Positions 5,274 to 45,546 are shown, counted from the whole stretch's first letter. The stretch: 45,546 bases of DNA, filler included, from Jimgerdemannia flammicorona (GCA_003990765.1; 2 parts of 2 records of this genome joined end to end with filler, not necessarily neighbours in it), one strand, 5' to 3'. Translations and numbers: made by a program. The notes: generated by a model not told the origin, from the letters alone.

Positions 5274-5340
5274 AAGGGTTTCAAGAAGTGTCTCGGGAAG
5301 GGTTCCCGGAAGTGTTTCGGGAAAGGTTTCGGGAAGGGTC
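5274..5340 (+). repeat. Degenerate 12-bp minisatellite (GAAGGGTTTCGG-like), about 5-6 units
   Basis: gaagggtttcaa gaagtgtctcgg gaagggttcccg gaagtgtttcgg gaaaggtttcgg gaagggtc. Confidence 0.7.
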
Positions 5341-7226: not shown

Positions 7227-7389
7227 AATGTACCGATGTACCTCTATATGTCACGTAAAACACTGTATTCTAATTATATTTATTGATTTACATTAGAAAG
7301 GATAAAGAAACGTATTATTTTACATTCAGAGTAGAATGATAACAATATTGCCAAATGAATAATACACCAATAGAAAATGAAAACGAAAC

Positions 7390-11677: not shown

Positions 11678-11696
11678 TATTTTATAGTCACTTGGA
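11678..11696 (-). mobile_element. ~19-nt extreme 5'-truncated LINE 3'-end insertion with ~15-bp TSD
   Basis: Insert TATTTTATAGTCACTTGGA is flanked by GCCTATCTGATTATA (11663-11677) and GCTTATCTGATTACA (11697-11711). It matches the tail-adjacent sequence at 13741-13754 and interrupts colinearity with the young LINE. Confidence 0.65.
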
Positions 11697-13726: not shown

Positions 13727-13848
13727 TTTTTTTTTTTTTATATAGTCACTTGGACTCCCATTCTTTATTAATACCTCTATAGATAATACATAAATGCCTC
13801 TATCCACCTTAACCGATGCCCCTTGGGTCCCCCTCCTCACCCACCCCA
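13727..13848 (-). mobile_element. ~120-bp 5'-truncated LINE insertion with perfect 17-bp TSD, inside the old LINE's endonuclease region
   Basis: Poly(T) followed by ATATAGTCACTTGGACTCC. TGCCTACCCCTATATCT is repeated at 13710-13726 and 13849-13865. Confidence 0.85.
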
Positions 13849-22672: not shown

Positions 22673-22723
<51 letters not shown>

Positions 22724-22823
22724 NNNNNNNNNNNNNNNNNNNNNNNNNNNNNNNNNNNNNNNNNNNNTTAATTAATTAANNNNNNNNNNNNNNNNNNNNN
22801 NNNNNNNNNNNNNNNNNNNNNNN
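22724..22823. other. Artificial assembly spacer (44 N + TTAATTAATTAA + 44 N)
   Basis: Exactly 100 bp and symmetric. The 12-mer puts stop codons in all six frames. It is preceded by an A-run and a ~50-nt C-run typical of a low-quality contig end. Confidence 0.95.
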
Positions 22824-22837
22824 TGCCGAAGGACAAT

Positions 22838-25800
22838 CTATCTACCCACCACCCGAACTCTCCCTTCACTCTTCCTGCAGATACAGTCCACCAGTTTCCG
22901 GTGACTCCCCCCTCCCTCTCCCCACCCTTGCCACCAACCATTCAAAGTGTCTAGTGTTAACCATTCCCAGTATGCTACCCTTGCCGCAACAGTAGTTGCC
23001 TGCCCCTCCTCAAAGACACTTAGCCAATGACCCACCATCCCTACCCAAATTGCCAGGGCCCAACCCAGGGTCAACTATTCATCCCCAACCCCACCTACCA
23101 ACCACCACCTAAAGCACCCCCATCTCCCTCCCTCCCCTTCCAACAGAGGCTGTAGTCCCAACCGACTAGCAATAATGTCCCAAAAGTCCCCCATTACTTC
23201 ACACTCCCCAAGCCAATGTTCAGGCATCTGCACCACTCCCCCCTCCTGACCCACGTTCAAGCATTCCTCACACTCAAATATGCCATCAGGCACTAAGTGT
23301 CCTGTCCGATAGTTCAGCATCACATTCTGCCTCAAGAACCTCCACCATATCACCCAGAACTTAGGAGGAAGCCACTGCAACACCTGTTTGCTCCAAAGCC
23401 AAACCCCATTCCAATCCCACTCCTCTCCAATTCCAGCTCACTGCCAAGCCTCAGGCCATACATCACCCCCAAGACCCATCTGACATTCCATACCATTGCC
23501 AAGCAGATAATCCTCCACCACAGTACCACCCAGCAGCAGCTGGTCCCATCTCTACATCCGCAAACCCCATTCCTCCTCCCCCTCATCTCCCCTCCATCGA
23601 AGTCCTATTCGCCTTGCACTGTCCACCACTCCCCACCAGAAACCCTTGTAGCGCATCTTTCGACTTCCATCCAAAGCCACCAGTGCCAACAGATCACTGG
23701 ACTTGCCACATGGGGAGTACCGCACTTCTCACACTCTCTGCATAAGTGGTACCCATTCCCTTCCATGCAACTCACTAGCCCTCTTCAGCCACCAAGCTCT
23801 CAGGCAATGTAGATGCTTGGCCAAGTCCACCAAGCCCAGCCCACCCCGGTCAATAGGTAGTGACAGAACCTCCCAGCCAATTTGGCTCCACCATCCTGCC
23901 CAGATCCACGAACTTGCCATTTTCTGAAGCTGCTTGACCACCCAGGGAGGGAAGTCCAGATGATACCTCATATACCACAACTTTGGCAGCCAATACATGT
24001 TCAGCACCATCACCCTTTCTGCCAAGGATATATGCCGACCACCCCACCTCAGGAGAATGTTCCCCCATGCCAGCAGCTGCTGTTCCCACCATGCACGAGG
24101 TAGGAGAGACCCATACACTGAGAAATATATCCCTAAGTACCAGACCGGTTCTCCAGCAGGAACCACAGTTCCAATTACTTCGCTGCCAACTATTCCTTCT
24201 CCTAGTACCATAGTTTCACATTTGTGCCAGTTGAGTCGCGCACCCGAGCCCCTCTCATACCACTCCACAGTTCTGCGCAGTTCCTCCACATCAGCAAACG
24301 AACCCAGCCCAACCACCATATCATCCACAAAGGCTCCAACCTTCCAGTTAATCCCCAAAATGTCCAAACCCCCTATATGGCACCAGATCCTGTCCAGAAG
24401 GGGCTCCAAGGACAGAGTATATAGGATAGGCGACAAAGGATCCCCTTGTGGTACTCCATGACCTAGCGGGAAGTTTATACCCCTGTGTCCATTCACCACC
24501 AAAGCTGCTTGACTGTTCTCCAATAGGCTGATTAATGACCTCTAAAAATCCATCGGGATGCCTATACGCCTCAGTATACCTTCCAGCCAGACCCTCCTCA
24601 CTCTGTCATATACCTTCTCCTGGTCCAGAAAAACCAACTGGCCATCAACCCCAGCCACCCGAGCTCCTTCAATCACCCCATGGACCCATGCAGTTCCATC
24701 TCGGATCAACTGACCCCCAACAAATCCTTGCTGCTCCACTCCCAGTATGTGCTGAGCGATCCCCTGTAGTCTGTTCACCAAGATCTTTGTCACCAACTTG
24801 CAGTCCATGTCAAGGAGCATGATCGGTCGCCAATTCTTCCAATTCTCCCTCCTCCCCTTATCCTTAAAGAGCAGGGAGACCAGTCCTAGACACTGACTCC
24901 CAATCCAGGCACCAGATCAAATAACTTCATCACACATTACAGTCATCTCCTCCAAGACCCCTTCCACCTTGACCATCCTCTTCCAAAAGTCCCAGGGAAG
25001 TCCATCCTCTCCCGGAGCAGTCCCTTTACTTGTCGCAGCCAGGACTTTACACACCTCCTCTCCTCGTACTGGTTTCCCCAGTGTCCCCAGTCCTAGGGCT
25101 GGGTCCGGATGCCAGTCCTCCAACTGCCTTTCAATATTCAATGCATCCTCCCCTCCATCCTCCTCGCTCCACAAACACCCCCAGTGATTATACAGCAATC
25201 CCAGTATTTCTGACGTACCCCCCACCATTTCCCCATCCTCATCCAAGATACTATCCCACTGCTGCCTGGTCCTCCGTGCTTGGAGTAGCCTGGAGAGAAA
25301 TTTAGTAGGTCGCTCCCCTTCCTCCAACCCCTGCCATCGCAGTCTTGCTACCATTCCCTCCATTCGAATCTCTTCCTCCCTTCATAGTACCTCCTTCAGC
25401 TCATCTACTTCCTTCTTTATCCACAGAATTCACCACTCCGCTACTCCTTTACCCTCTATCCACCCTGCCCATTTCTCCAAAAGTGTCACCAATCTATGTG
25501 AAGCCCATTGTACACACCTCCACCTTTGTGCACTCTTCCCTTTCCCTGCTTCTCTCCAGAACTGCTGAGCACTTAACTTCAGCCTCCTCCATCGATCTCC
25601 AATAACCAATTCCTGCTCCCGCCATCTAATAATCTTCCTGGTAGCCTCCACCTCCCAATCAGTCCATAGAGAACCATCCTCCAATAGAGACGAGTTGAGC
25701 TGCCAATGACCTGGCCCATCCCCACTTCCCCCAAATCTCCCACTCCCTATTAGTCCCCAGTGATCAGACCATGGGCACCAAACCACCTCCAGTGTAGCCC

Positions 25801-26440
25801 AGACATCTACTCCCCAGTACTCTGCCGTTAGCACCCAGTTAATCCTGGATCCTAGTCCTGCCACCCAATGAGTATAGATTCGGCGATCGACCCAGAACTG
25901 TCACCCCGAGTCCACCAATGAACTCAACCTTTCCACCTCCATCCAATCCTCCAGCCCTCCACTTCTATCTCGCAGTCCTCTCCCCCCATCAGTCCTATCC
26001 ACCACATTGTCACACACCATATTGAAATCACCCCCCAGACAGTCTATCCCAGCTTCCCCCAAGACCCCTGCCTCACGCAAGTCCTTGATCCAGCCTATGC
26101 GTTCCCCTCTCTCAGCTGGGTAATAGCATGACCCAACAGTCAAAGTGTTCCAACCAGGCCTCCTCCACACCCCCCATACCAGCCTACTCCCCCAATGTCC
26201 ATTGTCCCCAATGTCCCCCATCCCTTTTCTAACCAGGATGCCCACCTGCCCTGTCCATATAGCTACCCCACCCCATTTCCAAGTCCAGTCCAGTAGGTCC
26301 ACATCTGGCTCATACTGCACATCCTGCAATAGGAAGAGATCTGCCTCCAGACCCTTCAACCAGCCAAAGATATTTCTATGCCATGACGCCCCCCTTAGCC
26401 CATTGACATTCAAAGAAAATATTCTAGTTATACTGTTCAT
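22838..26440 (-). pseudogene. LINE ORF2: apurinic endonuclease, reverse transcriptase and C-terminal Cys-containing region, disabled by point-mutation stops
   Basis: Motifs SLNVNGL, LLQD, GGDFN, SDH (APE) and APGEDG, WRPIMLL, DQEKVYDRV, GVPQGDPLSP, FVDD, YLG (RT). ORF-track pieces starting at 26467, 25864, 25363, 24820, 24523, 23383 and 23074 are all in one frame. Confidence 0.92.
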
Positions 26441-26469
26441 ATTGAATAATGTTGGTAGAGATATCACAA

Positions 26470-28390
26470 TCTAGAATTCCATGCTCCTCCTGTCCCCCTC
26501 CAGATCCAGGTGCCGTGCAGCCTCCAACTCGTCCTTCATCACCTCCTACACATCCAGTGCCTCCAAGATTTCCTGGCACTCTGCTCCATCAACCACTTCG
26601 AATTCTGTCTGATACTCCTTGCACACTACTCCCCACTTCTCCAACCCTTTCTTCGAGTTCCACAAGTAAGCTGCTCAATCATTCGCAATCCCTCGAAGTT
26701 CCTCCTCCCTCTGATCATCGACTTGATACTCCACCAACTCCAGGAGCACTGCCAGAATTTCATTCTGGACCTTCTTTGGCACCTCCTTGCTACGCAGAAT
26801 TTCCTCCCAGTGCCTATCACTCATAACCCAGAAGTCCTCACCTCCCAGCTCCTCAGCTGCCACCCTTTCCAGAGTCTTCCACAACCACTTCTCCTCATCC
26901 ACCTCCACCTTGGCACCTCGGGCACTCCCTTCCACCTCAACCACAGGGTCCACCAATGCGATCCTCCTCCCTGACTCATCCCACTCCTCCTCCAGGACAT
27001 CAAGAAGCTCCTCCTCACCTCTGGCTCCTCCTGGGACCCCATACTGTGGCTGTACTTCTACACTCATTTCAGCGTCCTCCACCCTGCTGCCCTGCCTTCC
27101 CTCCCCATGGACCTCTTGGGCCACCCTTTGAGCTACTCTGGGCTCCCCAGCCCAGTCACTTTTCCTCGATCCTACTCTACCTCCTCCCTCTCCACCTTCT
27201 ACCATGCCTTCTCCCAATTTCTCCAGCAGCTCCTTCTGATTTCACCTCCTCTGCATCTTCTCCCAGGTTCCTCGATCCATCCTGATCTTCTTCTCTTCTA
27301 CAATTTCCACCACTGTCTTGGCCTCATACTCCTTCTAAGCCAATCGTCTCCTCTCGATAGCTCCCATCAGATCCTCAAGAGCCTCCAGCAAATCCTCCTC
27401 TTCCTCCAGCATCCCTTTCACCCGGGAGACCCTGCACTCAACTGGTCTCCACTTAAGCATCACCGGCCAGTCCCTCGCCTTCCCTGTATTCTCCTGACCA
27501 AACAAGCGTACTCTTATGTCAACATCTCCAGTCCTAAGTTCCATGCCCTCCCAGACCTTGAACCCAATATTGATGATATCTCCATACTCCTTGACCACCT
27601 CCACAATCAGCTCCCTGGCCCTCTCCTGTGACATCGTAGGAAGATCCAGCACCATCAACTGCACCACTTGTGGGTCCCAGCAGATGCACCTTGCCATAGG
27701 AACTACCACTCCACCCACCACTACCCCTTTCTCCACAGCCTCCAGCATCGATGCCTCTTCTTCAAACCCAACCTCAATCCCTTCCTTCCCCTTCAGGAAC
27801 TTGACCATAGCTGCCCCCTTCACCTCCTGCACCACCAGCCCCAGAATCATCCTCACAGTCACCGCCAAGCCTCGGAAACACAATGTGACTGCGAATTCTG
27901 ACCTCAACTTTTTGAGTAATGGTGCTGACACCATGCCTGTCACTCCATCAGCTAAGTCCCCAGGCCTCGTGCCCTCCTTCTGTCCAGATCCGCCAACCAC
28001 TGTCACATCTGGATTTTTTTCCAGATTCCCCGTCACAGCCCCATCAGCAGTCACACCTCCAACCCCTACTCCCCCTCCCCCCATACCGACTGAAGCTCCC
28101 ATGGGGGGTCCTCCCTGTCCTCCTTCTGAAACCGGCATCGCCTTCCCCAGTCCCAACCAACCCTCCATCCTTGCTGCCATCTTCCCCATCCTGACCTTGT
28201 CAGCAAAGGACGTCCTCCCCCCACCTTGCTGCCTCAGTCCACCTCTCCCTCCACCTCCAGCGCCACCGCCAACCACAGATGGCCCCGGCATCCCCAAACC
28301 ATCTCCTCGTTTCCTCCCAACCTGCTGCCAGTCGAAGGCATGGCTGCCCCCCTGGCTGACATGCCCACCAGTATGCTCGTTGCTCACCAT
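26470..28390 (-). pseudogene. LINE ORF1 (Gly-rich N-terminus, Tx1-type RRM-like core, acidic/coiled-coil C-terminus)
   Basis: ORFs 27335-28390 and 26675-27217 are in the same frame, separated by TAG/TGA. The pattern SFADKV..VLDLP..KEYGDI..RTGDVDIRVRL is typical of Tx1/L1 ORF1. Confidence 0.75.
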
Positions 28391-28480
28391 GTTGATAGTA
28401 GCTTTTCACCAAAAACTTCACAGAAAGTGTTGTCCAAATCTTGTGTCACCTGAATGTTACTGGTGAAAAGAGTGCCACGC

Positions 28481-29430
28481 CTCTGTGATTATTAAAGACC
28501 ATATTGAGTATAAAGCTGAGAAAATTCTTGACAAATGAATCTACTACCACTATCTTGAATATCTAGTCAAGTGGATGGGTTACCCTGAATATGATGCTAT
28601 CTGGGAACCACTGGTCAACCTCAAGAACTCTCAAGATCTAGTTCAAGACTTTGAGATAAAATATATTGTCCAATCTCTGTAGTGACTTTCTTGGATTATC
28701 AATGACCTATAGCAATGACTAGTGTCTTATGCATCAGAAGTTTACTTTGGGACCCTGGAACTAGTAGAATATTTAATGAACAAGAAGTCCACTGAAATGA
28801 AGCTACTAGCTGAGTTCAAACCCCTTCCAGTTGGTTAGTCTGGTAATAGGTCCTCTGCTCTATACAAGGATGGCCAATCCCCACCAATACACTGATATAA
28901 GTTTGAGAAATTTTGGTTAAGTATATCTAGTCTTGTATTATCTAAGAACTCAATGAGAATATTGGTTCTTAAGGAGAGAGGGATGTAATAATTTCATAGT
29001 CATATTTAGTCTTAGTATATTTTTGTGTCTTTTAGTTAGTCTTTTCTTATTATTTCTTAAATATTCTACTATATTCCACCACCTTCTACTTGCTTAGAAA
29101 CCTTCTCTCAACACCCAGACACTATTTCTTAGTACCAAGTATCTTATCTTAGCTAGTTATGAAACCTTTTGGAATATTGTAGAATAGTATTAATTAGCTT
29201 TACTGAGAACCTATTTCTTGACATTTCTCTTTCTTTCTAAGATTCTTCCAGATCTTTCTTTCAGATCATATATAAATATCCTTGTTCTCTACCTGGATAA
29301 AGCTCAGAATATTTTTTCTCAGAAATCCTTCAAGAACACTTGAACCTTTAAGTATCTCTTCAAGCTACTTTAGGTCAACTAGAACTTTCCGATTTAGCTA
29401 CTTCCTCTTAAAGAAACTAGAACTATTATA
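28481..29430 (+). mobile_element. 3' end of a second Ty3/Gypsy chromovirus copy: chromodomain, PPT and 3' LTR (28984-29430)
   Basis: Colinear with ~36547-37503. EYLVKWMGYPEYDAIWEPLVNLKNS. PPT AAGGAGAGAGGGA at 28971-28983. The LTR starts TGTAA and has a ~17-bp deletion relative to the other two copies. Confidence 0.9.
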
Positions 29431-30309
29431 GAAAGAGTTTACTACTATTCTTCAGTAGGTCCTTAGAAGAATGTAACAACTTATCAAATATAGACTATAG
29501 TAGTAGCAAAGAGTTATTTCAGAGTATAATCTTGATTGTTTGTCAGAAGGTGGTCAGCAACTTACTTATTGGTCTATTAGTTGACTTCAAAATTAGTATC
29601 AACTATACTAATGAAACTTTGGACTTCTTGTGCAGTACTATTGAAGATAGGTAGGCTCAGACTTTTTGTTGGTCAGGTCTGTTTAACTAAGGTAGTAATG
29701 GTTGCTACTATTATGACTACTTGGGCTATGAGGTCTAGAATCTGTTAGTTTGCTATGTTGTTTACTGGAGATGGTTGGACTACTGGTAATAGTATTACTG
29801 ATATGACTTGAGGTACTAGTGCAGAGTATAATGGTGTTCTTTGAGTTTGTGTAAGTTACTAGAGTAACTGTTATAGGTCTGGAGTAAGAGCTTGATAGAT
29901 AACTTTCTATTGCTATATAGGTATATTTTGTTCTGATAGAGGTGTATCTTCTTTGGTAGTATATCTGGAATTAAATTCACTGAGATACTTCTCCTCCTCT
30001 TTACTTTAGTCTTTATATAGTTGAGTTTGCTCAGCATTAAAGTAGATAGTATCAGTTATATATCAGATTTCAGATGAGCTTAATTTAAAAGCTAGTTCTG
30101 GTTCAGTAAAGATTTTAGTTTCAGGTAGAGCCGTAGCTAGGCCTGCTTCTGGTTCAGGGTTAGATTGTTGATAAAGGATTTCTCTTGCTTCTTCTTTAAG
30201 AATATAGTAGGCCTTATAATTTTGAAAGCAGTAGTATAAGACAGTCTTAGTTCTGATATAGTGAAAGTTGGTAGAGTTGAGCCACTTGACTATAGAGGCT
30301 TAGACTTTA
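29431..30309 (-). mobile_element. Older LTR-retrotransposon gag relic that hosts the Gypsy insertions (probably continues at 37504-~38500)
   Basis: Minus-strand read-through LPIFNSTAQEVQSFISIVDTNFE..VVTFF*GPTEE***TL is gag capsid-like. The TSD at 30305/37504 shows the two flanks were once contiguous. Confidence 0.55.
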
Positions 30310-30773
30310 TATAACAATTTCACAGTCATATTTAGTCTTAGTACATTTTCATGTCTTTTAGTTAGTCTTTTCTTATCATTTCTTGAACATTCTACTATGT
30401 TCCATCATCTTCTACTTACTTAGAAACCTTCTCTTGGTACCCAGACACCACTAAAACATTCTTATCTTTCCTTAGCACTAAGTATCTTATCTTAGCTAGT
30501 CATGGAACCTTTTGGAACATTGTAGAATAGTATTAGTCAGCTTTGCTGAGAACCTATTTCTTGGCATTTCTCTTTCTTTTCAAGATCCTTCTGGATCTTT
30601 CTTTCAGATCATATATAAATATCCTTGTTTTCTACCTGAATAAAGCTCAGAATATTTTCTCCCAGAAATTCTTTGAGAATACTTAAACCTTTAAGTATCT
30701 CTTTGAGCTACTTTAGGTCAATCAGAACTTCCAGATTTAGCTGTTTCCTCTTAAAGAAACTAGAACCATTATA
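30310..30773 (+). repeat. 5' LTR (464 bp)
   Basis: Ungapped alignment to 37040-37503. Termini read TA...TA, from TG...CA. Confidence 0.93.
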
Positions 30774-31817
30774 CTTGATAGCAGTAGTGTTGTTATATCT
30801 TGCCTTATTAAGAAACCTTATACAAATTCAGAAACCAGTCACAACTAGTCACATGAACCTGAAATGAGCCATAAAGAGTCAGTCTATCAGCCAGACCTCT
30901 CTGCTATAGAAGAAGCAGGAGGACTGTAGCTCAACATAGAAGATATGATCAAAAACTTCAAGTATAACTAGAATACCAGAAAATACAAACTGTGGGTACA
31001 TCACATCCTGCCATAGCACTAGTTAGTTTCAAGCTACTCAAGCCAGATATCTTTAACAGTTATTGAGGAAGACTATCTACAGATACATGGACCTTCTAGT
31101 TGGACCAATACTTCAAACTCACAAGAATGGAAGATGACATGTAAGTCCAATTTGCCACCATACTTCTCTGAGGAAATACAGCCATCTGGTGGCACAATCA
31201 TATTATGATTATATCTGTATATGTACTCATATATACAAATCAGAGATTGGGAAGCTTTCAAGAGAGCCCTTCACAAGCAGTTCAAGCCTGCTAATGCCAC
31301 TAAGCTAGCCAGGAATAAGCTAGCAAATATCAAGCAACTCAAGTCTGTACAAAGCTACAATCCACAATTCTTGTCAATCATACTCAAGCTATCAGTAGTA
31401 TCTGAGGATGAAAAGATAGACCACTATGTCTGAGGTCTGAAGGGAAATACATGAGTCAAGGTTGAGCTAGAAGAGCCCAAATCTCTTGATGAAGCTATGA
31501 GAATTGCTAATAGATTTGATGTTATTATCTTTAGCAACCACTTCAAACCAGAACACTACAAGAACCACTTCAAGAACTACCACAGAAACCAACCAAGGAC
31601 AGTTGGCCCAGTACTAATGGACTTAGACACCATGAACAAAAAGAATACCAAGCTTACCCCTGAAGAAAAGAACTATCTAAAGAAATCTGGAGTCTGTTTC
31701 TTCTATCACCAAACAGGACACATTACAACCAAATATCCTAGGAAGACTAGCAAACCCTCAAGACCAGTCACCATGTTGTCCAAGGATACACCTGTCAATC
31801 CTACTATCAGTCAACTT

Positions 31818-32232
31818 GAGCTAAAGATCAAGAAACTTCATCTGAAGGCCCAGGTCCCTCAATATCAAATAGAAGGAGCTATTAGTCTTGACCTACACTC
31901 AGTCAAACAAATCACTATTCCAGCCAAGAGCTGTACTCTGGTGCCTACTAGAATTGTAGTTCAATGCCCTGAAGGACATTATGCTAGAATTGCACTACAA
32001 TCAGGACTCAGTATCAAATATTATTTGGATATAAGTGCTGGTGTCATTGACCCAGACTTTCGAGGACAAGTTCAAGCCTTGCTTGTTAACCAGAAGGATC
32101 AAGATTACACAGTTAAAGAAGGAGACCAAGTTGTACAAATGATCCTAGAAAAAACCAGTCAACTCAAGATTACAGAAGTCCAAGAACTCTCTGAAACCAA
32201 ATGAGATCAAAAGGGTTTTGACAGCACTGATC
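31818..32232 (+). pseudogene. dut: Retrotransposon-encoded trimeric-type dUTPase domain
   Basis: All five motifs are recognisable: GAISLDL (I), ALQSGL (II, from PRSG), AGVIDPDFRG (III), GDQVVQMI (IV), *DQKGFDST (V, from RGxxGFGST). In frame with gag upstream and protease downstream. Confidence 0.92.
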
Positions 32233-32753
32233 AAGCAGCAAGTCTTAGTGAAAATTGAGCTCAAGCTATGCTCATTTTCAAAGGCCTAGTTAAAGAAAAA
32301 GAAGTTCAAGTACTTATAGACAGCAGAGCTACAGAGAACTTTATCAATCAGAATCTCATCAAAAGTCTTAAGATCCTCACTAAGCCTATATCTAAGAATA
32401 ATAGTATAGTCACTGCAGATGGTACTCTGCACCCCATCAAGTCAATTGCTACTAAACTGCCCATCAAGATCCAGAAATATTGAAACAAGTAGACTTCGAG
32501 ATTACACCACTAGGAGATCATGACCTGATCTTAGGAAAACTCTGGCTTATGAAACACAACTCAGACATTGATTGGTATAAGAATGAGTCACCTTACTTCA
32601 AGATAGAGCCAACATTATGATCAAGACAGACAAGACTATGAGTAAGACCCAGATTGCAATACTGTTAGCTATACAGTATAAGAAAGTACTCAAGAAAGCA
32701 ATGTATGTCTTTATTGTAATGATCTGCTCCAAGAAACAAGATAAGAGACTATC

Positions 32754-33869
32754 TGTTGAGATATAACAACTCAATATATATGATGTCATCCATAGGAGAT
32801 ATCACCAATCTGTGTGATCAGTATGCATAAATTCACATCATATGTATTATCTAATAAATGGCTCTTTTTTCCCCATATTCCAAAGGAGTACTATTATATA
32901 ATAAAGGTTATGAGCCCTGCAACATATGGCAGCCCACCGAGAGTGATTCTCCACATTTGAGTCATTTGAACACCCAGTGCCTATCAAACTGGAAAACAAT
33001 AATGTGATATATACCCAAGGCAAAGGAAATGTTGGAATATATCTCTATGGGAATATTGTCAAGCCTGCAGCCATACTTGGGAATATACTATATACTCTGG
33101 AGATAGGAAAGAACCTCTTTTCTATAGGCAAGATAATGGCTTGAGATAATAAGAAGATGTACATACATTCAAAAGGTACAACCATATATAGCCTGCATGG
33201 TAATAAATACAATAAGACATTGATGACAGCCTCAAAGTGAGGCAATTTGTATATAATTAATGGAATACTGAATAGAGTAAAAGTCTTCACATACATGACA
33301 ATAACTATGTGCAACATATATAACATATGGTATAAATATTTGGGGCATATCAGTAAATCGAGCCTTGGACAAAGTATATGATTGCCAATTCACTTATAAA
33401 AGCTCTTCTGAAGCTGAAGTTCGAGCTATGCACTGAAGAAATGGGTCTTATGAGCAGGTTACAAGACTTTTCAGGCTGTTAAAAGCCTCTTATATCATAT
33501 TGAAATACATTGGTTGCATCCCTCATCTACAAGTGGATTATATATATTGAATTCTTCACTTATAAGTGGGTTATAATACATTTCTGCAGATATTACAGGC
33601 ATTTTGAAGTTTTCTAGTTACAATCTGAGTTATATACAGTTCTAGTCTTTTATATGCATAATATTGCTTTTATCTAGTTTGCATTTTTCTTTTTTAGTTC
33701 ATATCTCCTTAAGTAGGAGTATTGAGATATAACAACTTGATATGTATAATGTTATCTATAAGAGATATCACCAATCTGTGTGATCAGTATGCATAAATTC
33801 ATGTTATATATATTATTCAATAAATGGCTCTTTCTTTCTCATATTCCAAAGGAGTACTATTATACAACA
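32754..33869 (+). mobile_element. Internally deleted Ty1/Copia element (1116 bp, 150-bp LTRs) nested in the Gypsy between PR and RT
   Basis: LTRs 32754-32903 and 33720-33869; perfect TSD CTATC (32749-32753, 33870-33874); Copia-type PBS GGTTATGAGCCC at 32906; purine tract before the 3' LTR. The interior translates to GKGNV..KNLFSIG..GNLY..WYKYLGH (Copia post-protease and GAG-pre-integrase). Confidence 0.9.
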
Positions 33870-36800
33870 CTATCAGTCAATGAAAGTGTCAAGCTACTGC
33901 TAGAAGAGTTCAAAGATGTCTTTTCAGACAAGCTACCTAATCTACCACCTACATGAGAAGTTGATCATGAAATTGAACTGACCCTAGGAGCTATACTACT
34001 CAAGAAATACATGTACTGTATGTCACTACTCAAAATTGAAGTAGTCAAGAAGGAACTAGAAGAACTACTTGTACAAGGAGCCATCCAGCCAAGCAAATCT
34101 CCTTATGGCTCACTAGTCTTATTTGTCAAGAAGAAGAATGGTACCCTGTGAATATGTATAGACTATCATATACTCAACAAACTCACTATTAAGAACCACT
34201 ATTCACTACCCTTGATTGATCAAATCTTTGATACTCTCAGGAATGCTAAGTACTTTACCAAGTTAGACCTCATGTCAGAATACCACCAGATCTGAATCAA
34301 GCCAGAAGATATTCTCAAGACTACATTCATAACCCCCTTTGGACTCTACAAATTCCTGATCTTAGCATTTGATCTCACCAATATATCTGCCACATTCTAG
34401 ATCCTGATGAATAAGATATTCAAGGACCAACTATTTATTTTCCTGTTGGTATATCTTGATGACATTCTGATCTTTAATGCAACTAAAAAAGAATACCTCA
34501 AATATATTTGAATAGTTCTGGAGATTCTGCAAAAACACAAGCTTTATGCTAAGCTCAAGAAGTGTGAATTCTTTAAAGAACAAGTCAAATACCTTAGCCA
34601 CATTATCTCTATACAAGGAATTCAAGTAGACCTACACAAGATAGAAGTAATTGAAGAATGGCTCATTCTGTCAAACCTCACAGAACTCCAATCCTTCCTT
34701 GGTCTAGCTGGCTATTACTGCTACTTTGTTAGAAACTTCTCTGGTATTACTGAGCCACTGACTAACCTCATGAGGAAGGCCCCACACTCAGACCACTATG
34801 TACCCTACACCTAGGACCTCTTCTGTCAACAAGCCTTTCAAGAACTCAAGAACTGTCTGACCTATACTCCAGTTCTATGTAATACAGATCAAGGCCTAAA
34901 ATTTATAGTCACTACTGATGTGTCAAATTTTGCCATTAGAGCAGTCCTATCACAAGATGATAGCAAAGAACATCACTCTATTGTTTTTGAGTCTTGTAAG
35001 CTGGCTCCAGCTGAACAAAAGCTAGCTACTTATGAGAAGGAACTACTAGTAATAATATATGTACTAGACCACTGGTGATGTTACCTAGAAGATGTTGAGT
35101 TTGATATCATTACTGATCATCAATCTCTCAAGTACATCAACACCCAACCTACTCTGTCACATCTACAAGCCAAGTAGAGTCTCAAGCTTCAAACCTTCAA
35201 TCTGACAATCATCTACAAGTCTGGCAAGACACTTGTAATACCAGATATCTTATCAAGATGTCCAGACCTTGCCACAATTATATAAGTTACCTTGGCATCA
35301 GAATTCCTAGACCAAATCAGGCAAGCTTACAAAGAAGACATAGTTGCCACTAGAGTTTTCTTGAATGAACTCAAGGATATATGTCAAGAATAATCTAATC
35401 TATCATCAAGACCAAGTCTATCTATCTGAAAACATGAACCTACACTACAAGGTTTTGCAAGAACACCATGACTTCCCTCTCATCAGTTACCTGGGAATTG
35501 AGAAGACTGTCAAGAATATTCAATGCTACTACTATTGGCCAAACATGGTTAAGGAAATCAAGAACTATGTTACCAGCTATGATCTATGTCAATACAACAA
35601 GTCTACCAATCAAGCATCTGCTGGTTTACTACAACTACTGCCAATTTCTACCAAGAAGTTTGAGCAAGTCACCATGGACTTTGTAACTCAACTACTATGA
35701 ACTCAATCTGGTGCTGATACTATCATCATATTTATTGACCACTTGACTAAGACTATGATTGCTGAACCAATCACTATCAATGCTACTGTATCTGAGATTG
35801 CAAGAATCTTCTTCAAGTCTATCTTCCATCACTATATTCTACCACAAGTAATTGTTAGTGATCATAACCCAAGTTCATCAATTACTTCTAGCAAACCCTC
35901 TTCAAGACTTTGGGAACTCAATTGGCTATGTCTACTGCCTTTCACCCACAAACTGATCAACAAACTGAGTATATGAACAGAACTCTAGAACAAATGCTTA
36001 GAAACTATGTTTTTTACAAATAAGATGATTGGGATATCTACTTGACTTATATAGAGTTTATATACAACAATACTATCTAATTATCTACTGGTCTTTTCCC
36101 TTTCCAGTTACTCCACAGTCAAGATTCCAAGACCTCTGCAAGTCTATTCTCTTTCAAGAAACTCCACCAAATACAAGTCTTAACCACTAAGAACCTTACA
36201 GACAAAATGGACAAACTACTTAAGATTGCTACTATGAATCTTCAGAAGACTCAATAGCATCAAGCCAAGTATACTGACAAGAAACACCATGATGTCACTT
36301 ATACTATTAGAGATCAAGTCCTACTGTTTACTGAGAACCTCAAGATACAATCTCAAGTCAATCACCCTTCAAACAAGTTCCAACCCAAGTATATTGGACC
36401 TTTTGAGATCACTGAATAAGTCTCTGCATCCTCCTACCATCTCAAGCTACCTGAAACTATAAGAGTATACCCAGTCTTTCATATGTCACATCTTAAGACC
36501 TAGAACTAGTTACCACCCTACCCTGGTCAAATTCCTAAGCCTTCTGCCCCTGTAATTATCAAAGACCATATCGAGTACAAAGCTGAGAAAATTCTTAACA
36601 AATGAATCTGCTACTATCATCCTGAATATCTAGTCAAGTGGATGGGTTATCTTGAATATGATGCTACCTGAGAACCACTGGTCAATCTCAAGAACTCTTA
36701 AGATCTAGTTCAAGACTTTAAGACAAAATACATTACTCAACCCCTATAGTGACTTTTTTGGATTATTGATAACCTATGGCAATGACCAGTATCTTATGCA

Positions 36801-37039
36801 TCAGAAGTTTACTTTGGGACCAGAATATTTAATGAATAAGAAGTTCACTGAAATGAAGCTACTAGCTGGGTTCAAACTCCTCTCAGTTGGTTAGTCTGGT
36901 AATAGGCCCTCTGCCCTATATGAGAATGGCCAATTTCCATCAATGTACTGATTCAAGTTTGAGAAATTTTGGTTAAGTATATCTAGTCTTATATTACCTA
37001 AGAACTTAATGAGAATGTTAGTTCTTAAGGAGAGAGGGA

Positions 37040-37503
37040 TATAATAATTTCACAATTATATTTAGTCTTAGTACATTTTCGTATCTTTTAGTTAGTCTTT
37101 TCTTATCATTTTTTGAACATTCTACTATGTTCTGTCACCTTCTACTTACTTAGAAACCTTCTCTTGATACCCAGATACTACTAGAACATTCTTGTCTTTT
37201 CTTGATATAAAGTATCTTGTCTTAGCTAGTCATGGAATCTTTCAGAACATTGTAGAATAGTATTAGTCAGCTTTGCTGAGAACCTATTTCTTGGCATTTC
37301 TCTTTCTTTCCAAGATCCTTCCAGATCTTTCTTTCAGATTATATATAAATATCCTTATTCTCTGTCCAAATAAAGCTCAAAATATTTTTTCCCAGAAATC
37401 CTTCAAGAATACTTAAACCTTTAAGTATCTCTTTGAGCTACTTTAGATCAACCAGAACTTCCAGATTTAGTCACTTTCTTTTAAAGAAACTAGAACTGTT
37501 ATA
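37040..37503 (+). repeat. 3' LTR (464 bp)
   Basis: Follows PPT AAGGAGAGAGGGA and is followed by TSD CTTCA. Confidence 0.93.
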
Positions 37504-39789
37504 CTTCATAAAGAACTAAGGCTAAAAAGACAGCTGCTGGTTGTCCTAGGTCACTTAGATTTATAGAGCTAACAAAACTCTTATTGAGAAGAGTAAAGAA
37601 GGCTTCTATAAGATCTTCTTCATCTTGACTTGTGGGATATAGAGCAAGGAGTTTAGTATATAGAGTTTTATTTATCTGCTAATTTAATTGGAGTATTTCT
37701 TTTTATAAATGAAGTCTGTTCCACTTGTTGTAGATGTGGAGGTCAAATTGTCCTTGTATATTAGGTTCAATTCTCTCCAAATTATCAGATAGTTTAGAAT
37801 GAATTCTAATTCAGAGGTTGAGCTTTATATCAACTTGTAAAAATTCTTATAGAGATTTATATATAGTAGAGTAAGGAAGCATCTTGAAGCAGAATTGGAT
37901 TATAAACTACTGCTACTAAGTTGTAAGAGAGTTACTATTAAAAGTACCATTATATAGTTCTAGGAGGGTTTTCTGAAAGTTCTAGATATTCTGGAAGACT
38001 ATTTTCTTAAGGTTAAGATCAATTTCATATAGAGTATATCCTCTATATTTATTGATTTTAAGATAGAGTTGATGTCTTAATCAAAGTTCCTTTTTGAACT
38101 AGTTCTGGATGTTCAGGATTTTCTATATTTCAGGAAGTTCAAGAAACTAAGACCAGTTTAGTTGAATTAGTATATTACTACAGACAATATCTAATTAGAA
38201 AATTTCATGATATGGTTAGGAGTAAGATCTAACAGAGTATAGATTTACTTAAGAGTGGTTTGTAGGTTATTAAATAGATTTATTTACTATTTATAATATT
38301 ACTATACTAGGAATAGTATGTGAAGAGATATTGTGGAGAAGTGTTCAGGAGTTTTTATATGTTCAGATCTATTTAAGTCTGAGTTTCTGAGATCTGAGAG
38401 AGGGGGTATTTATACTAATAAGAGACTATCTAGACTATGCTAAATATAGATATAACACTTAGTACCTTACTGAGTTAGAATATAGATATATAGTACAAGT
38501 GTAAACTGATATATCAAGAGATTATCTGACTGCTGAGTTAGTATATAGTTATATTATACAAAGCTAATCTAACTATACTAATGACTGCTAAGTTATCTAT
38601 AGATTTAGATACTATCTCAGTAGTCTTCAATGACATTACTATTAATGATATCATCTCTGATAAAGTAATTATCTAGAAAGAGTAGTTCTTAGATTACTTC
38701 TCCCTATTTACTCAGGTAATAATATATTGGAACTATATCACTATTTTATAGAATAGTATTATTTGTCTCATATGCTAGGTATAGAGTTAGTAGATAAAGG
38801 AGAGGTATATTGTTTTCATTTTTATCAGATTTGCTATCTACATATCTTCTGTAGGTTATAGTACTATATGTTGCTGGGTTGTAGTAAATAGGTAGCTATT
38901 CTTCATATTACTCATACTTAAGTAATAGAGTTGTCAGTTCAATCTTAAGAGTTGTCTGAAGATACAAATTGTATTCCTTGGTCTCTTCATTGTAGTTGAA
39001 GTAGTTAGATATAAATGTGGATTAGTACTTATATTAGTAGTCATTATTCCAATAGGTCTCATAAGTAGTTATGAACTGTTGTAAGTTCATTGGCAAAGTT
39101 GGTGAGATAATTAGAGTTGGCAGAGATCCTTAGCTCAAGATTATATCAGTATCAGAGAGATTATTATCTTCTGCTTTATCATTATAAAACTGGATTATAT
39201 CATAGATATTCTTTATAGTATATCCAACTTGGGGCATTTGCAGAATATAGTCATCAGAGTGCAGGAAAGTTCTATCTATAGTTTGAATATATTCAATATA
39301 CTTATAGTTGAGTTCTTATATCATATCATCAATTTGGCCATAAGACAGAATGGCAATCATTTCAGTAATAGTAACTTAAAAGTAGAGAATAAAGATGCTA
39401 TACTTATAAAAGAGTTCTCAGTATTTACAGATAATAAGTTTCTAGTATTGAGACATCTGAATAATATTTGTATTATAGTAGTATTCAACTATATCTTATA
39501 GGAGATAGCTGATCTAGTAGTAGCTTGAGATTTGTCTAATTCAGTAGACTTCACTAAGTATGTTCAGAGTATTCCATCAGACTTCTACAAAGTAGAGAGA
39601 TATCAGGCTATAGATATTCATGAGAAGTAGGGGAGGTGTGACTCAGTTGATAATAGTATTCCAAATATCAGCATAGATGTAGTTATAGATCTTAGTCGTC
39701 ATAGTTGTATATATATTCAAAAATTATAGTTATTTATTTAGTTTGTTGTCATTTCAATATATTTGAGTACTCAGTATATATATATTTAG

Positions 39790-41600
39790 TCCTGATTGGT
39801 AAGGTTCCATTTTGTGTAAATCTTGTATTCTATGACTTTGAGTTGACTCAGCTTTATACTCTGTAACTTCAGTTTGACTTAGCTTTGTAATTTTATATAT
39901 GATTTCCAGATTTATTCTAAGGGTAATATATGATTTTAGTAATTTGGAGGTTGTGTGCTTATAAGTACTAACTAAGGTTTTCTCAGAATAATGTAGTATT
40001 CTTATAGAAATACTATATAGAGATTTAATTTTTTAAAGTACTCTTGTATTGTACAGAGTAACTTGACTATCATTTTATTGACTTGATATTCCTTTTCATT
40101 AGCTATGGAAATCTTGAACTCCACTTATTACAGTAGCTTAACAGTAATGATCTTCAGCTTCTTTACTATCTCTTTACTAATAAAGTTATCAGATATATTA
40201 CTATCAATAAGAATATCTATTTTTTATTCTTTGACTTTTCCTTTGAATAGTAGTAGACTAATATTGATAGTACTGATATTCTTCTTATATGTAGTTTATA
40301 CTTCCAGCACTTCCAAAGCTTTTAGTATCCTAAGCAGTTTCTTTTAGATTTGTAACTTCTTTAATTATTGGTACTTTGACTTATTTTAGAATTAGTTATA
40401 TAATCTAGTCTTACTTTTTGATTTTAAAGAGTTATGTATCATTGTTGATCAAAAGTACTTTAATTTTCCTATAATAGTCTAGGTCTATATATTATTCTTA
40501 TACTTAGATCAATACAATGTTTGATACTAAGACCTGATTATAATATAATTCTTTTATAATACTCTTAAGGTATTGGTATAGCTAGTCTAATAGCTATGAG
40601 TTATTACTATCCTACAGAGATTATTATATCTTAAATAGTCACTAGGTCTAATCTAATTACTCCTGAGATTTTTACTTCTGATATAATAGTATTAGAATAT
40701 AGTTTCTGAACTATTAGATATACTTCTTCAGTTTGAGTAATGAGTATTATTATTTTCTTCTTAGTAATAGTTAGAGTTTTCTTTATTTCTGTTTTGTCCT
40801 TAATCTTTCTTGAGTATTTGATAGTAATGTGTCCTTTTTCTTAGTAGTAGAAGTAGGCTCTACTCTTATATAATTTTTTCTTTTTCTCTAGTATAAGTCT
40901 TGATTTGATGATAGTATTCAGATCTACATATTAGAGCAGAACCTACAACTTTTTTTAGGGTATCTATATCTTTGTTGAGACTTCTTGGATTATTTGGAGA
41001 AATGATTTCTTCTAAAAGAGATTGTATTAAAGTAATTAGTAATTAATATTACTTCTTCAATAGTATTTAGATCTCATAGTTCTACTTTTCATCTAATATA
41101 ATCCTTGAGTCTCCATATATATCTATTAAATTTTTCAGCTTTGCTGATGTTGTTAATCTCTAAGACTATACTCATAAAGATAGTAGTATAGATCTTAACT
41201 AATCATATTTATTACAGAGATATCAACTTGTCTCTAGCTATCTTTTTTAAGTTAATAGACTTAAACTATCATATAAGTTGATCTTAAAACTTATTCCAGT
41301 TTGAAAGATCTTTCTCTTCATCTCTGACTATTTAGACTTTTATTTTTTATCAAATAGCTACATCTTCTCATAATGGTTACTTTTTTCTAATAGTAGAGAG
41401 AATATAGTATATAAAATAAGATATAAGCTATATTAAACCCTACTATATCTAGTATAATAGAACTACTGGACAATAGTAAATCTAAATTAATAAAAGTACA
41501 GTGTTCAGAAGAAAGAGAAAAAGGATTTTGACCTATATAGTTTAGATTTTCTTTTAATAAAAATCTGTAAAACATTGTGTCTATTTAAAAATATATATAT
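39790..41600 (-). mobile_element. Second, more eroded Gypsy relic with gag-zinc knuckle-dUTPase-protease order
   Basis: Minus strand: DLNTIIKSRLILEKKK..RAYFYY*EKGHITIKYSRK (knuckle relic, ~40805-40925); SGLSIKHCIDL..KIKVLLIN (dUTPase, ~40440-40535); KSFGSA (motif V, ~40305-40325); LLFKGKVKE*KIDILIDSNISDNFIS (protease, ~40175-40255). Confidence 0.75.
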
Positions 41601-42369
41601 ATATATACAACTAGTCAAATCTAGAAGAATGAGTTAGCAATAATTCAAAGCTAATATAGAATTAACAGCAAGAGTAGTAAACTTTTATCTAGATCTATAA
41701 GAAAGATAAAATAATCTTTTATAAAAACTAAATAAAAGATCTCAATATCTATTCTTTAAATTCAGATATCTATATATTTATAATATAGTATTCTTCCATC
41801 TATAATTATAGTAAAATAGATACTAAAAATTATAAAAGCTTATTTATCTTTATCTTACCCTTGATGACCTTATATCTCAAACTATTAAAACTCTTACTAA
41901 AAAAATAAAATTTAATAGATCTATATATAATAGTAGATAAGTTTCTCACCTTTCTCTCTCATGAATTAATCATATCATAGCTTCACCTTTATGTCCTTAA
42001 ATTTACCAGCAAAAAAGGGGTCTGAAGGAGACTCCAAGCTGTTTGGATGCTTGATGGGCAGAAAGAAGAGTCGGCAGAGCACAAAAATACTTAAAAACAC
42101 ACATACATTATATATATCTATTCTGCTAAGAGAGGCTGTGGCATAAGAAAGACCAGCGGCATAAGAGAGATGTCATAAAGGCTGGTGTAAGAGATGTAAG
42201 AGAGACGGTGTAAGAGGCTGCGGTGTAAGAGAGATGGCGTAGGAGGCTGGCGTGCTGGCGTGTAATAGAAGGTCGCGTAAAAGTTTAATAAAATTGGTCT
42301 AACGGCTCTACATGACGTCACTCCTAAGAAAAGCCACCAAAGATGAAGTTTCGGCTCTGAAACCGCAAC

Positions 42370-44915
42370 ATGAGCCACAAGAAGCGAAATTATCGTAAAA
42401 GAGATCTGGTGGAAGATGAAGGAGAGACAAGCGCCCCTGTGAAAATCTCGGACGATCCGTCCGGTTCCCTCTCGAGACTGAGCTTTGCGGACGAAGAGGT
42501 CTTGGTCGTAAAACCTGTGAAGATTGATCTTATCCTCATTATTCGCGCAATAACACTGGCAATTGACCGAATTTCGCTTCTTTTTGGATCAAAGTAGGTC
42601 CCCAAGCAGACCGCAAAACCAAAACGACCCAAGGAAACCTCGTCAGCCGCGACAGCTACGACAGCTGCGACCGAGCAATCAATCGAACCCGCTTCCATTG
42701 CATCCCAACAAGATGATCCGATCGTGCTGCTTAAATGCGCCAAAAAGAAGCTTTCCGTCCGACGTCTTCCGGACCGCGGGCGAGGCGTATGCGCCGAGGA
42801 AGATATCAGTGCCGGTAAATTTCTTCTCGGCCAAGATATGCACCCGATCCTGCGACAAACTATTGATCCAACATTGAACCCTGTCAGGCCAGACCCTACT
42901 CGAGGAGGATTCCTACGCGGCGGTGGTCGATGATAATAACCTCTCGCGGCGGTGCAGCGGGTGCTTTGGCGAGGCGAAGAAGCTTTCGCGGTGTTCGGCG
43001 TGTAAAGTTGTGCACTACTGTAGTTCGGTACGTTGCTCTGCATACGATTTGTTGGAAATTTTGAATATTATTCTGACATCTTTGGTATGGTGCTATCCTC
43101 GTCTCATAGGTGTGTCAGAAACGCGACTGGGTGACCTCACATCAGGAGGAGTGTAAGGCCTTTGTCAAGGTTGGCAGGCCTGTGCCAACGGCCATTCGGG
43201 TGGTGTCTCGGATCTTGAGGAGGAGACAGAGAGATAGAGAGTCGGCACGTGAAATTCCTGCATCTCTTTCTATTTATTCGATTTTTCATACGCTGGTATC
43301 AATCTAATTTCAAATCGTTCCGCGCTCACGGCCATTTAATTTAGTATTCGGAGGTCGAGAATCTTGAAAACCGTATGTACCGTACCAATCCCACTTTCGA
43401 ATTGTTAATCGTGCTACTGATTTCTACAGAAGAACTACACGAATACAATTCACCTCCCATCGCCTCTATCCAGGTAAACTAGATTTCCCTCTCCCTCAGC
43501 TCCAGACCTTTGCGCAGATAGCGATGGTGGTGCGCGACTGCGTGACCGAGGCCGCTATGCCCTCGGCGTCTGAAACCATCGATCTGTGGTGCCGAGTAAG
43601 CCGCTTTTGCCATCCCTTCCTTCGCATAGAACAATCTATATCTGTCTCACACCAAATCACACCTTAGTTTACGACCAATAGCTTCTCAATCCTGGACGGC
43701 GAGATGGTCGACGTGGGTGTTGGAGTCTACCCGGCCACGGCGATGATCAACCACTCGTGCTGGCCCAACTGTGTTGTTGTGTTTGAGGGTGCGAGAATCT
43801 TAGTGAGGTCTATTCGGCCTATTAAGCGTGGTGAGGAGGTAGGTGTTGATACAATGTCACGTGCATGCGTTTGAGTATATATTCCAGACACTTTCGATAT
43901 ATTTATTTACAATTTTCCAGATAACCCAGAGCTACATTGATATCGCCGAACCGGTGAGCCGACGACGTGCGGACCTGCGGCAACGGTATTTCTTCCTCTG
44001 CCAGTGCGAGCTGTGCGAGAGGACATCCAAGGTACTGAGTGATGTTGCACTCGCGGGTTGAGAATTCTTTTAGTGACCTCTTTGAGTTTTGCCAGGATAT
44101 GGACCCACGAGAGGCTTTGAATTGCCCCACGCGAGATTGTAAGGGGGCTATCCCACCACCAGGCGAGACCGTTTATCTGATTGTCACGTTCTATAAACAC
44201 TAAGTCTTTTCTTTCCGTGCCAGGCACCTTCAAGAAATTGACGAATATCACCATTACACCGGAATGTTTGTTCTTTCCGAACCATTTAGATCCTCTCGAC
44301 ATGTCTGATTTATACGAGACCGCGTGCAGAACCTGCGGGAACATTGTGAACCTCGACGCCGACGACATCCGGGATACGCTTCGCCGAGCCGACAAGTACT
44401 CCGAGTTCGCCAAAGACCTGGAATCCCAAGGTCCGCATCTCTCCTCGTGTCATATCCACCATTTTCCGTCTATCACACCGCCCACCCCCTAACCATCCCT
44501 CTCCATAATAGACCCCACTCGAGCCCTGCAAAACCTGCATCACAGCCTGAGAATCCTCAAACCCCTCTTGCACTTCTCTCACGCCACCCTCCTACACACG
44601 CAGCAGCACCTCAAGGACCTCTGCACGCAGCTTCGGGACTGGCCAGCGGCGTACGGGCACGCGTGCGCCCTGCTTGACGGCTACCGCGTCGTCTACCCGT
44701 GTAACCATCCGCTTGTCGGTGTGCTGGCCCTAGCTACCGCCAGGATGCTGCTCACGTGCGGGGACGAGATCGAGGTCGCGATCGAGTTGCTGAGGGAGGT
44801 GGTTATGGTGATGGAGGTCGCGTTTGGGGCGGAGAGTGCGATGACGAGGAGGGCGAGGGAGGAAGAGGTGGAAGTGACAAGGGAGTTTGAGAGGAAAAAA
44901 CTGGGGAGAGGGTAA
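42370..44915 (+). CDS. SET and MYND domain protein lysine methyltransferase (SMYD family), multi-exon
   Basis: GRGVCAEEDI (N-SET); CSGC..RCSACKVVHYCS..CQKRDW..HQEEC (MYND); GVYPATAMINHSCWPNC..RPIKRGEE|ITQSYID (SET); YFFLCQCELC (post-SET); C-terminal helical region YPCNHPLVG. Introns are GT..AG except one probable GC..AG. Confidence 0.92.
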
Positions 44916-45264
44916 AATGTGTTTTGTCGTTGGCCCACATCCTTCAAAGATTGATCAAATACAAGCACATAGAATTATGTTTCAAAACTATATTGGTGTG
45001 TATAAAAGGACAAGTGCGTACAAGCAACAAAAATATAGATTCCATCCCCCTCATGTCCTCTTTTACTCGCGAGAAAATTACAATGAAATATCCGAGGTCC
45101 AATTGTCCAAGTTGAATAATGGCTATGAGCATGAAAAGATATCACCAACCCCACGGACAGTCCAAAACCAAAGAGAAATGCACTGGCAATATTCGAAATG
45201 TGTCTCCATCCCGAGACCCCGGCCGGCCTTCGTTCCGTGCAAAAAACCTTCTCGTCATAGCCTC

Positions 45265-45546
45265 TCATTGACTATTAAATACAGCCCCACATCTCTCGCA
45301 CGTTTCCTCTGTCATATCCATGCAGCACACGAATCCGATGGGAAAGAGCACAATGCCAATGATCCACCCTGCGAGTGTGTACTGCGTGGTTAGAAGGTGG
45401 TTCCCAATGCACGAGTCAGGGGCAACAATGGCGCCGTAGCCGGCATTTGGCGGTGAGGTGTTGGGTTGGGGAGGGGTGTTGGGTTGGGGAGGGGTGTTGG
45501 GTTGGGGAGGGGTGTTGGGTTGTGGGAGGATGTTGGGTTGGGAGGG
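45265..45546 (-). CDS. 3' part of a BRI3 (brain protein I3)/LITAF-like small membrane protein, partial
   Basis: Minus-strand translation (NTPPQP)n NTSPPNAGYGAIVAPDSCIGNHLLTTQYTLAGWIIGIVLFPIGFVCCMDMTEETCERCGAVFNSQ*. A Pro-rich region precedes a hydrophobic FPxGxxCC segment and a terminal CxxC. Confidence 0.75.
   Translation of the reverse strand, partial: PSQPNILPQPNTPPQPNTPPQPNTPPQPNTSPPNAGYGAIVAPDSCIGNHLLTTQYTLAGWIIGIVLFPIGFVCCMDMTEETCERCGAVFNSQ
45459..45546 (-). repeat. Coding 18-bp tandem repeat (TGTTGGGTTGGGGAGGGG on +) encoding NTPPQP
   Basis: About 4-5 units are visible up to the window edge. Confidence 0.85.

Follow-up and report, generated by a model that had tools for sequence, protein, structure and literature searches.

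We analysed a 45,546-nt stretch of DNA from Jimgerdemannia flammicorona (GCA_003990765.1), hereafter called the window, in which positions 30310–37503 are occupied by a Ty3/gypsy retrotransposon bounded by two long terminal repeats (LTRs). This element and related copies in the window bear the marks of a C-to-T hypermutation that resembles repeat-induced point mutation (RIP), a process treated as an ascomycete speciality. All coordinates are those of the whole window. The parts of the element were found by a repeat search and self-BLAST, and its domains by Pfam on the three forward frames, with X placed at stops. The following features were located.

30305–30309, plus strand: left target-site duplication CTTTA, one C/T transition away from the right copy CTTCA
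30310–30773, plus strand: 5' LTR of the focal Ty3/gypsy element, 464 bp
30776–30787, plus strand: putative primer-binding site TGATAGCAGTAG, 2 nt past the LTR
31239–31559, plus strand: gag (Ty3_capsid / Retrotrans_gag), Pfam
31848–32228, plus strand: dUTPase domain within the polyprotein (PF00692, E 2e-24)
32271–32477, plus strand: aspartic protease (RVP_2), a weak Pfam match (E 0.0011)
32756–33867, plus strand: internal rearrangement, with 146-bp direct repeats (32756–32901 and 33722–33867) around ~820 bp
32914–33138, plus strand: copia-type Pol_BBD match between the 146-bp repeats, Pfam
34125–34607, plus strand: reverse transcriptase (RVT_1), Pfam
34824–35198, plus strand: RNase H, Pfam
35437–35604, plus strand: integrase zinc-binding domain, in a frame different from that of the reverse transcriptase, with two frameshifts around the integrase
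36312–36728, plus strand: integrase C-terminal SH3 (Tf2-1 type) and chromodomain, Pfam
37028–37039, plus strand: polypurine tract AAGGAGAGAGGG, abutting the 3' LTR; an identical tract precedes the LTR of a third copy
37040–37503, plus strand: 3' LTR, 464 bp
37504–37508, plus strand: right target-site duplication CTTCA

The LTRs, the 5-bp target-site duplication, the polypurine tract, the gag–protease–reverse transcriptase–RNase H–integrase order and the C-terminal chromodomain are those of a chromovirus, with an extra dUTPase between gag and protease. The putative primer-binding site TGATAGCAGTAG may be of the initiator tRNA-Met type, which it resembles. The CTTCA/CTTTA difference between the target-site duplications, pointed out in an earlier note on this DNA, was found again as a single C/T transition. 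Since the two copies match apart from this transition, the possibility that the LTRs are remnants of two different insertions was ruled out. The element is a single Ty3/gypsy chromovirus insertion whose LTRs were identical at integration.

Regarding the dUTPase, metagenome proteins combining this domain with a chromovirus architecture exist (for example P0157, P0199 and P0217), and dUTPase-bearing Metaviridae have reportedly been described in basidiomycetes. A 161-aa fragment from a JGI metagenome (P0241) is 73% identical to the dUTPase of the element. A related-locus search with P0241 returned 27 loci, all at most 51% identical, and a degenerate 51-nt LTR pattern gave 0 matches in the metagenome scan. 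As for the internal rearrangement, the second 146-bp repeat runs in frame into the reverse transcriptase, and the 32756–33867 segment has the look of something produced by template switching or recombination, not of a nested element bearing LTRs of its own. The dUTPase and Pol_BBD domains occur together in one protein of metagenomic origin, P0244.

The two LTRs aligned without gaps over 464 bp and differed at 49 columns, of which 48 were transitions (28 C/T and 20 G/A) and one a transversion (T/A, LTR column 170), with no indel; on realignment, the counts given in the earlier note were thus exact. The probability of obtaining at least 48 transitions out of 49 by chance is 6e-8 for a transition to transversion (Ti:Tv) ratio of 2:1 and 2e-4 for a ratio of 4:1. 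A second comparison was provided by a truncated copy of the same gypsy family, which also supplies a third LTR:

28479–29430, plus strand: truncated second copy of the gypsy element, made up of 505 bp from the internal region, the polypurine tract and, at 28984–29430, an LTR that lacks 17 bp by deletion

This copy is 85% identical to 36546–37503, and its internal part differs from 36546–37039 by 55 transitions and a single transversion, with 11 gap columns. In the third young pair, the internal 146-bp repeats, 17 of the 146 columns differ and all 17 differences are transitions. Pooled over the three pairs, 120 of 122 substitutions are transitions (P = 6e-19 at 2:1 and 7e-10 at 4:1). Only 2 transversions were thus seen in 1104 aligned columns, against hits at 43–97% of the CpC, CpA and CpG sites. 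By comparison, the older repeats at 412–612 and 2381–2576 show an ordinary spectrum (32 transitions, 14 transversions and 19 gap columns). This genome does gain transversions and indels over time, and the young pairs show a large excess of transitions over little ordinary change. The start of the LTRs is affected as well: both focal LTRs start with TA while the third copy keeps TG, and the 3' terminus is TA in all three copies.

In order to orient the changes, 30 homologous polyproteins (45–54% identical) were aligned to pol by tblastn, and in-frame stops covered by at least 20 of the 30 were counted. Twenty stops were well covered, and for 12 of them the majority residue of the homologues is R, W or Q. 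These 12 comprise six R>TGA, three W>TAG, one W>TGA and two Q>TAA, each reached by a single C>T or G>A change; the other eight lie at poorly conserved positions. The TGG>TAG and CAA>TAA stops proposed in the earlier note are therefore borne out by the homologue majority, at the three W>TAG and the two Q>TAA positions. Parsimony on the three LTRs gave 49 C>T/G>A changes, one A>C and 27 apparent T>C/A>G changes. The latter fall at 11 CpG, 11 CpA, 4 CpC and 1 CpT sites, against 3.9, 6.9, 6.8 and 9.4 respectively if they were genuine T>C changes (chi-square P = 3e-5). This skew toward CpG and CpA indicates that the apparent reversals come from C>T striking two of the three copies in parallel. The two strands were struck alike (C/T at 28 of 107 C-bearing columns, G/A at 20 of 60 G-bearing columns, P = 0.37), and runs tests detected no significant clustering of same-strand changes (P 0.09–1.0). 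These data show that the changes are only C>T (G>A on the other strand) and that they hit both strands, in each copy independently. Because the LTRs were identical at integration, the differences between them arose later; the hypermutation postdates integration and took place in double-stranded DNA.

The sequence context of the hits was determined on the three young-pair alignments pooled, C or G being taken as ancestral wherever any copy keeps it. At least one copy was hit at 29 of 30 CpG sites, 60 of 133 CpA sites, 43 of 100 CpC sites and 13 of 157 CpT sites; in the LTR set, the difference between CpA and CpT has a Fisher P of 1.5e-10. Targeting thus follows the base 3' of the C, with CpG nearly saturated, CpA and CpC hit at about 45% and CpT spared. 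No clear effect of the 5' neighbour was detected (AC 21/42, CC 14/33, GC 14/26 and TC 27/69 hit), nor was there CHG-type symmetry, with CAG hit at 7 of 28 sites and CAA at 23 of 45. That many changes lie outside CpG, as the earlier note had stated, is clear from the 116 of 145 hit sites that are CpA, CpC or CpT. Loss of ancestral CpG sites does not account for these, and decay of CpG only was ruled out. Furthermore, the third copy contains two CG>TA double hits; since an ancestral CG becomes TA only through a further hit, made in a CpA/TpG context, the CA/TA differences are not reducible to CpG events.

Base composition was then considered along the whole window, the CpG content being expressed as an observed/expected ratio (O/E).

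3000–8000, 16000–22700 and 42000–45546: host-gene blocks, GC 0.41–0.50, CpG O/E 0.94–1.03
1–3000, 8000–15900 and 28479–42000: transposon blocks, GC 0.23–0.40, CpG O/E 0–0.11

The C>T process is confined to transposon DNA, and the composition shifts sharply at 28478/28479. The transposons themselves form a graded series. At its young end stands a long interspersed nuclear element (LINE, 23432–28405) with a GC of 0.53, a CpG O/E of 0.29 and a TpG+CpA O/E of 1.29; the focal element is in the middle, with a GC of 0.36 and a CpG O/E of 0.03; at the old end are relics with a GC of 0.23–0.31, in which CpA/TpG is depleted, TpA is raised and the composite RIP index is positive. This series fits a fast CpG component combined with a slower non-CpG component. 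By the usual thresholds, RIP is indicated by a high TpA/ApT, a (CpA+TpG)/(ApC+GpT) below about 1.03 and a composite index above 0. The focal element gives 0.97, 1.27 and -0.29 respectively, and the composite index reaches +0.35 at 37504–42000 and +0.82 at 29431–30304.

The other decayed elements of the window are the following.

23432–28405, minus strand: the LINE at the young end of the series (endonuclease and reverse transcriptase), at an earlier stage of decay
~10789–14868, minus strand: older member of this LINE family, strongly decayed, GC ~0.35, CpG O/E 0–0.04, with homology by tblastx
37504–41000, minus strand: older relic of a related retroelement with dUTPase and protease, adjoining the focal element, GC 0.27, CpG O/E 0.01

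The young LINE is a single frame of 1658 codons with 13 in-frame stops (8 TGA and 5 TAG) and no frameshift. Compared with 150 homologues, one of these stops lies at a conserved residue (25903, TGA where 59 of 109 have R). The high-GC and low-GC copies share the stop at 23731, after "...LMQRV" and "...LIQKV" respectively, at which ORF2 probably terminates naturally; in that case, the young LINE has 10 premature stops among its 13 in-frame ones. The two LINE copies are 56% identical, with 1071 transitions and 652 transversions and a directional excess of 788 versus 283. Pfam found 0 families in the low-GC LINE read through with X. The LINE sense strand (minus, 23000–28478) is G-rich and C-poor, with a plus-strand GC skew of about -0.5 over 5 kb, and G, W, E and V abound in the encoded protein. 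In the relic adjoining the focal element, the dUTPase matches are faint (E 1.7e-4 and 0.013) and the protease-like stretch was recognised by eye.

At 28478/28479, exactly at the jump in composition, the LINE meets the truncated gypsy copy with its 5' end, and the LINE probably inserted into or beside this older copy. The remainder of the truncated copy beyond the LINE was not found by self-BLAST of the window, on a side where there is a scaffold gap. The ~200-bp direct repeats at 412–612 and 2381–2576 are 74% identical and lie in an AT-rich block devoid of CpG, possibly as the LTRs of a far older element. Two runs of 44 N (22724–22767 and 22780–22823), with A-rich then C-rich homopolymer-like sequence to their left, separate a gene of the major facilitator superfamily (MFS) from the LINE/gypsy block. 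Further open reading frames (ORFs) were seen on the host side at 42878–43153 (plus strand, zf-MYND match, E 8e-5) and 45268–45546 (minus strand, BRI3-family match, E 2e-8); a protein-atlas search with the genes on the right-hand side of the element returned a best score of 0.79 and no usable match.

The host was placed with the MFS gene, whose ORF (17811–19241, minus strand) was translated unspliced. The protein is 56% identical to that of Endogone sp., 49% to that of Bifiguratus and 40–43% to those of Phycomyces, Paraglomus and Zychaea. A maximum-likelihood tree of 26 rows places it as the sister of Endogone (support 100/98) within a Mucoromycotina clade (96/90), and the asco- and basidiomycete rows stand apart from it. 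The non-Dikarya, Mucoromycota-like host suggested earlier from the gene content is thus corroborated, and the gene does not come from a RIP-competent ascomycete.

We favour, at about even chances, a C>T mutation of transposons that is linked to DNA methyltransferases and resembles RIP in its effect, without being canonical RID-type RIP. After integration, transposon copies were struck by a C-to-T process with little other change, which we read as deamination linked to DNA methyltransferases within transposon heterochromatin. Methylation of CG would be maintained by an enzyme of the DNMT1 type, whereas one like DIM-2 would extend methylation to non-CG sites or itself be the mutator; the modified cytosines would then be lost as T, and the elements would be killed by stop codons, as in RIP. 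Steering by the 3' neighbour corresponds to the reading of CpN by a DNA methyltransferase, which points to such an enzyme. DIM-2-like DNA methyltransferases have been reported in Endogonales and Glomeromycota, RID being reported solely in Pezizomycotina in the same paper (PMC9963178), so that deamination linked to 5-methylcytosine (5mC) has a plausible enzyme in this lineage, for which the earlier note knew of no characterised RIP pathway. For this reason, of the two options left by the earlier note, a dense multi-context deamination of 5mC is ranked first, ahead of an undescribed repeat-directed C>T defence. In related fungi, the literature mentions a DIM-2 homologue together with DNMT1 in Phycomyces (PMC13297926, PMC7862722) and CG methylation concentrated on transposons in Rhizophagus irregularis (PMC8647823). 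In Zymoseptoria, Dim2 is described as the cause of C>T mutation that methylated transposons undergo in mitosis, which is presented as a mitotic form of RIP (PMC8016269).

Several observations weigh against this methyltransferase-linked mutation. The context is unlike both documented behaviours, that of Zymoseptoria Dim2 and that of Neurospora DIM-2, and CpT is spared here: the Zymoseptoria study gives more than 98% of Dim2 mutation at CpA with CpG spared, and states that Neurospora DIM-2 favours CpT (PMC8016269). We infer the identity of the enzyme and the role of 5mC from the 3'-context specificity and from the literature. Transversions amount to about 0.001 per site and copy, against 0.2–0.9 C>T hits per susceptible site, and this ratio argues for an active mutator over a passive decay of 5mC, for which the C>T-to-transversion ratio in mammals is far lower. 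All the data were obtained within a single 45-kb window, on one family of retrotransposons, one duplication inside the element and one family of LINEs. Finally, the placement of the host rests on one gene that lies across the scaffold gap (22724–22823) from the focal element, although the two sides of the gap are tied together by the LINE family and the CpG-free transposon signature that they share.

Because an effect of this strength suggests that the mutator is an active one, a homology-triggered, RID-independent RIP-like process keeps a substantial probability, even if we consider it the less likely explanation. It might be sexual or pre-meiotic, and one conceivable route would pass through DIM-2 and heterochromatin, as in Neurospora's second RIP pathway. 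It overlaps with the methyltransferase-linked reading and the trigger is the sole difference between them. All the sequences shown to be hypermutated occur at least twice in the window, and the LINE, of which the window holds a single near-intact copy, lost mainly CpG; both points speak for a homology trigger. The excess over transversions (120:2) is RIP-like, the composition changes sharply at the 28478/28479 boundary, and the older relics are positive on the composite RIP index. However, the focal element is negative on the classic indices and CpA is not dominant, with 60 hits against 85 elsewhere. Single rounds of Neurospora RIP give same-strand runs of changes, which the runs tests above did not reveal, and RID is reported from Pezizomycotina alone (PMC9963178).

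The remaining explanations are far less probable. The editing of transposon DNA or cDNA by AID/APOBEC or another cytidine deaminase would agree with the restriction to C>T and the very high load, and we still regard it as improbable. AID/APOBEC deaminases are guided by the 5' base and act on single strands, whereas no clear 5' preference was found here, both strands were struck equally and the target-site duplication was also struck. Editing of cDNA by an APOBEC-like enzyme was excluded by this strand symmetry, the missing 5' effect and the divergence of the LTRs after integration, in double-stranded DNA rather than on a cDNA strand. Ordinary neutral decay under an extremely transition-biased background, with no process specific to transposons, is slightly less credible still: older repeats of the window contain many transversions and indels (as both the 412–612/2381–2576 pair and the two LINE copies show), and host-gene blocks with a CpG O/E near 1 lie beside CpG-free transposon blocks. 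Least plausible of all is an artefact, either at the RNA or reverse-transcription level (A-to-I editing, error-prone reverse transcription) or of the assembly. The element is indeed a retrotransposon and the scaffold has N runs, neither of which is specific, but these runs are 7.5 kb from the element, the LTR differences arose after integration, and the pattern depends on context and is confined to transposons. A>G RNA editing was ruled out by the C>T direction.

How does this hypermutation compare with known systems? With canonical RIP, as known in Neurospora and other Pezizomycotina, it shares the near-exclusive C:G>T:A change on both strands, the attack on repeated transposon DNA and the specificity for the 3' neighbour, as well as the stop codons that kill the elements and the AT-rich relics that remain. 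It differs in its order of preference, which is CpG > CpA = CpC >> CpT here, in contrast to the CpA dominance of RIP (CpA > CpT > CpG > CpC in Neurospora). The composition indices, positive in the older relics, fail on the focal element, and the host belongs to Mucoromycotina, outside the Pezizomycotina to which reports of RID are limited (PMC9963178). Three defining tests of canonical RIP have thus failed, those of CpA dominance, focal-element indices and host clade.

The Dim2-dependent mutation of Zymoseptoria tritici is alike in that C>T changes are confined to methylated transposons, depend on an enzyme of the DNMT1 superfamily and reach non-CpG sites; they make up more than 95% of all mutations there (PMC8016269). 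It is unlike the present case in that here CpG is saturated and CpC is struck as often as CpA. Among basidiomycetes, a TpCpG-biased RIP-like hypermutation was reportedly described in Pucciniomycotina by Horns et al. in 2012, and a CpG-biased one is said to occur in Rhizoctonia solani AG8. These are alike as transposon-directed C>T processes outside Ascomycota with a preference for CpG, but 116 of 145 hit sites are non-CpG here and there is no preference for a 5' T. The decay of CG-methylated transposons, for which Rhizophagus irregularis may serve as the example (PMC8647823), is likewise restricted to transposons, and the LINE analysed here shows the corresponding CpG loss and TpG/CpA excess. 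Such decay, however, predicts neither heavy CpA and CpC mutation nor a hit-to-transversion ratio this large.

Outside Dikarya, a RIP-like composition has been claimed in Zoophthora radicans (Zoopagomycota) (PMC11105155). That claim relies on a dinucleotide index alone and comes with its authors' caveats, unlike the present analysis, which brings alignments, direction, context and an LTR-pair clock for one window. A kingdom-wide k-mer screen of 2025 finds RIP-like signatures only in Ascomycota (PMC12543289). Papers on mycorrhizal fungi, citing Venice et al., report that RIP signatures went undetected in Gigaspora and in Mucoromycotina (PMC8647823, PMC7082362). A full-text literature search, whose coverage excludes most subscription journals and supplements, returned no alignment-based description of a hypermutation of this kind in Mucoromycota.

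The window thus adds alignment-based evidence that, in an Endogone-related fungus, a C>T process of great strength, reaching far past CpG sites, destroys the transposons, and it supplies an internal clock of 2 transversions to 120 transitions. We tentatively propose, as a possibility that we hold to be less than probable, that Endogone-related Mucoromycotina have a RID-independent RIP-like mutator of transposons or repeats, with a site rule of its own (CpG > CpA = CpC >> CpT) and probably a DIM-2-like enzyme. If this is true, published statements that RIP signatures are absent from Mucoromycotina need revision, and mutagenic genome defence is older than Dikarya or arose more than once. If the process is genome-wide, it would account for the AT-rich, CpG-free transposon blocks of these large genomes. 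The dating of transposons would also be affected, the LTR divergence observed here overstating age more than 10-fold. In that case, these fungi would offer a natural system in which to ask whether DIM-2-like enzymes are ancestral mutators.

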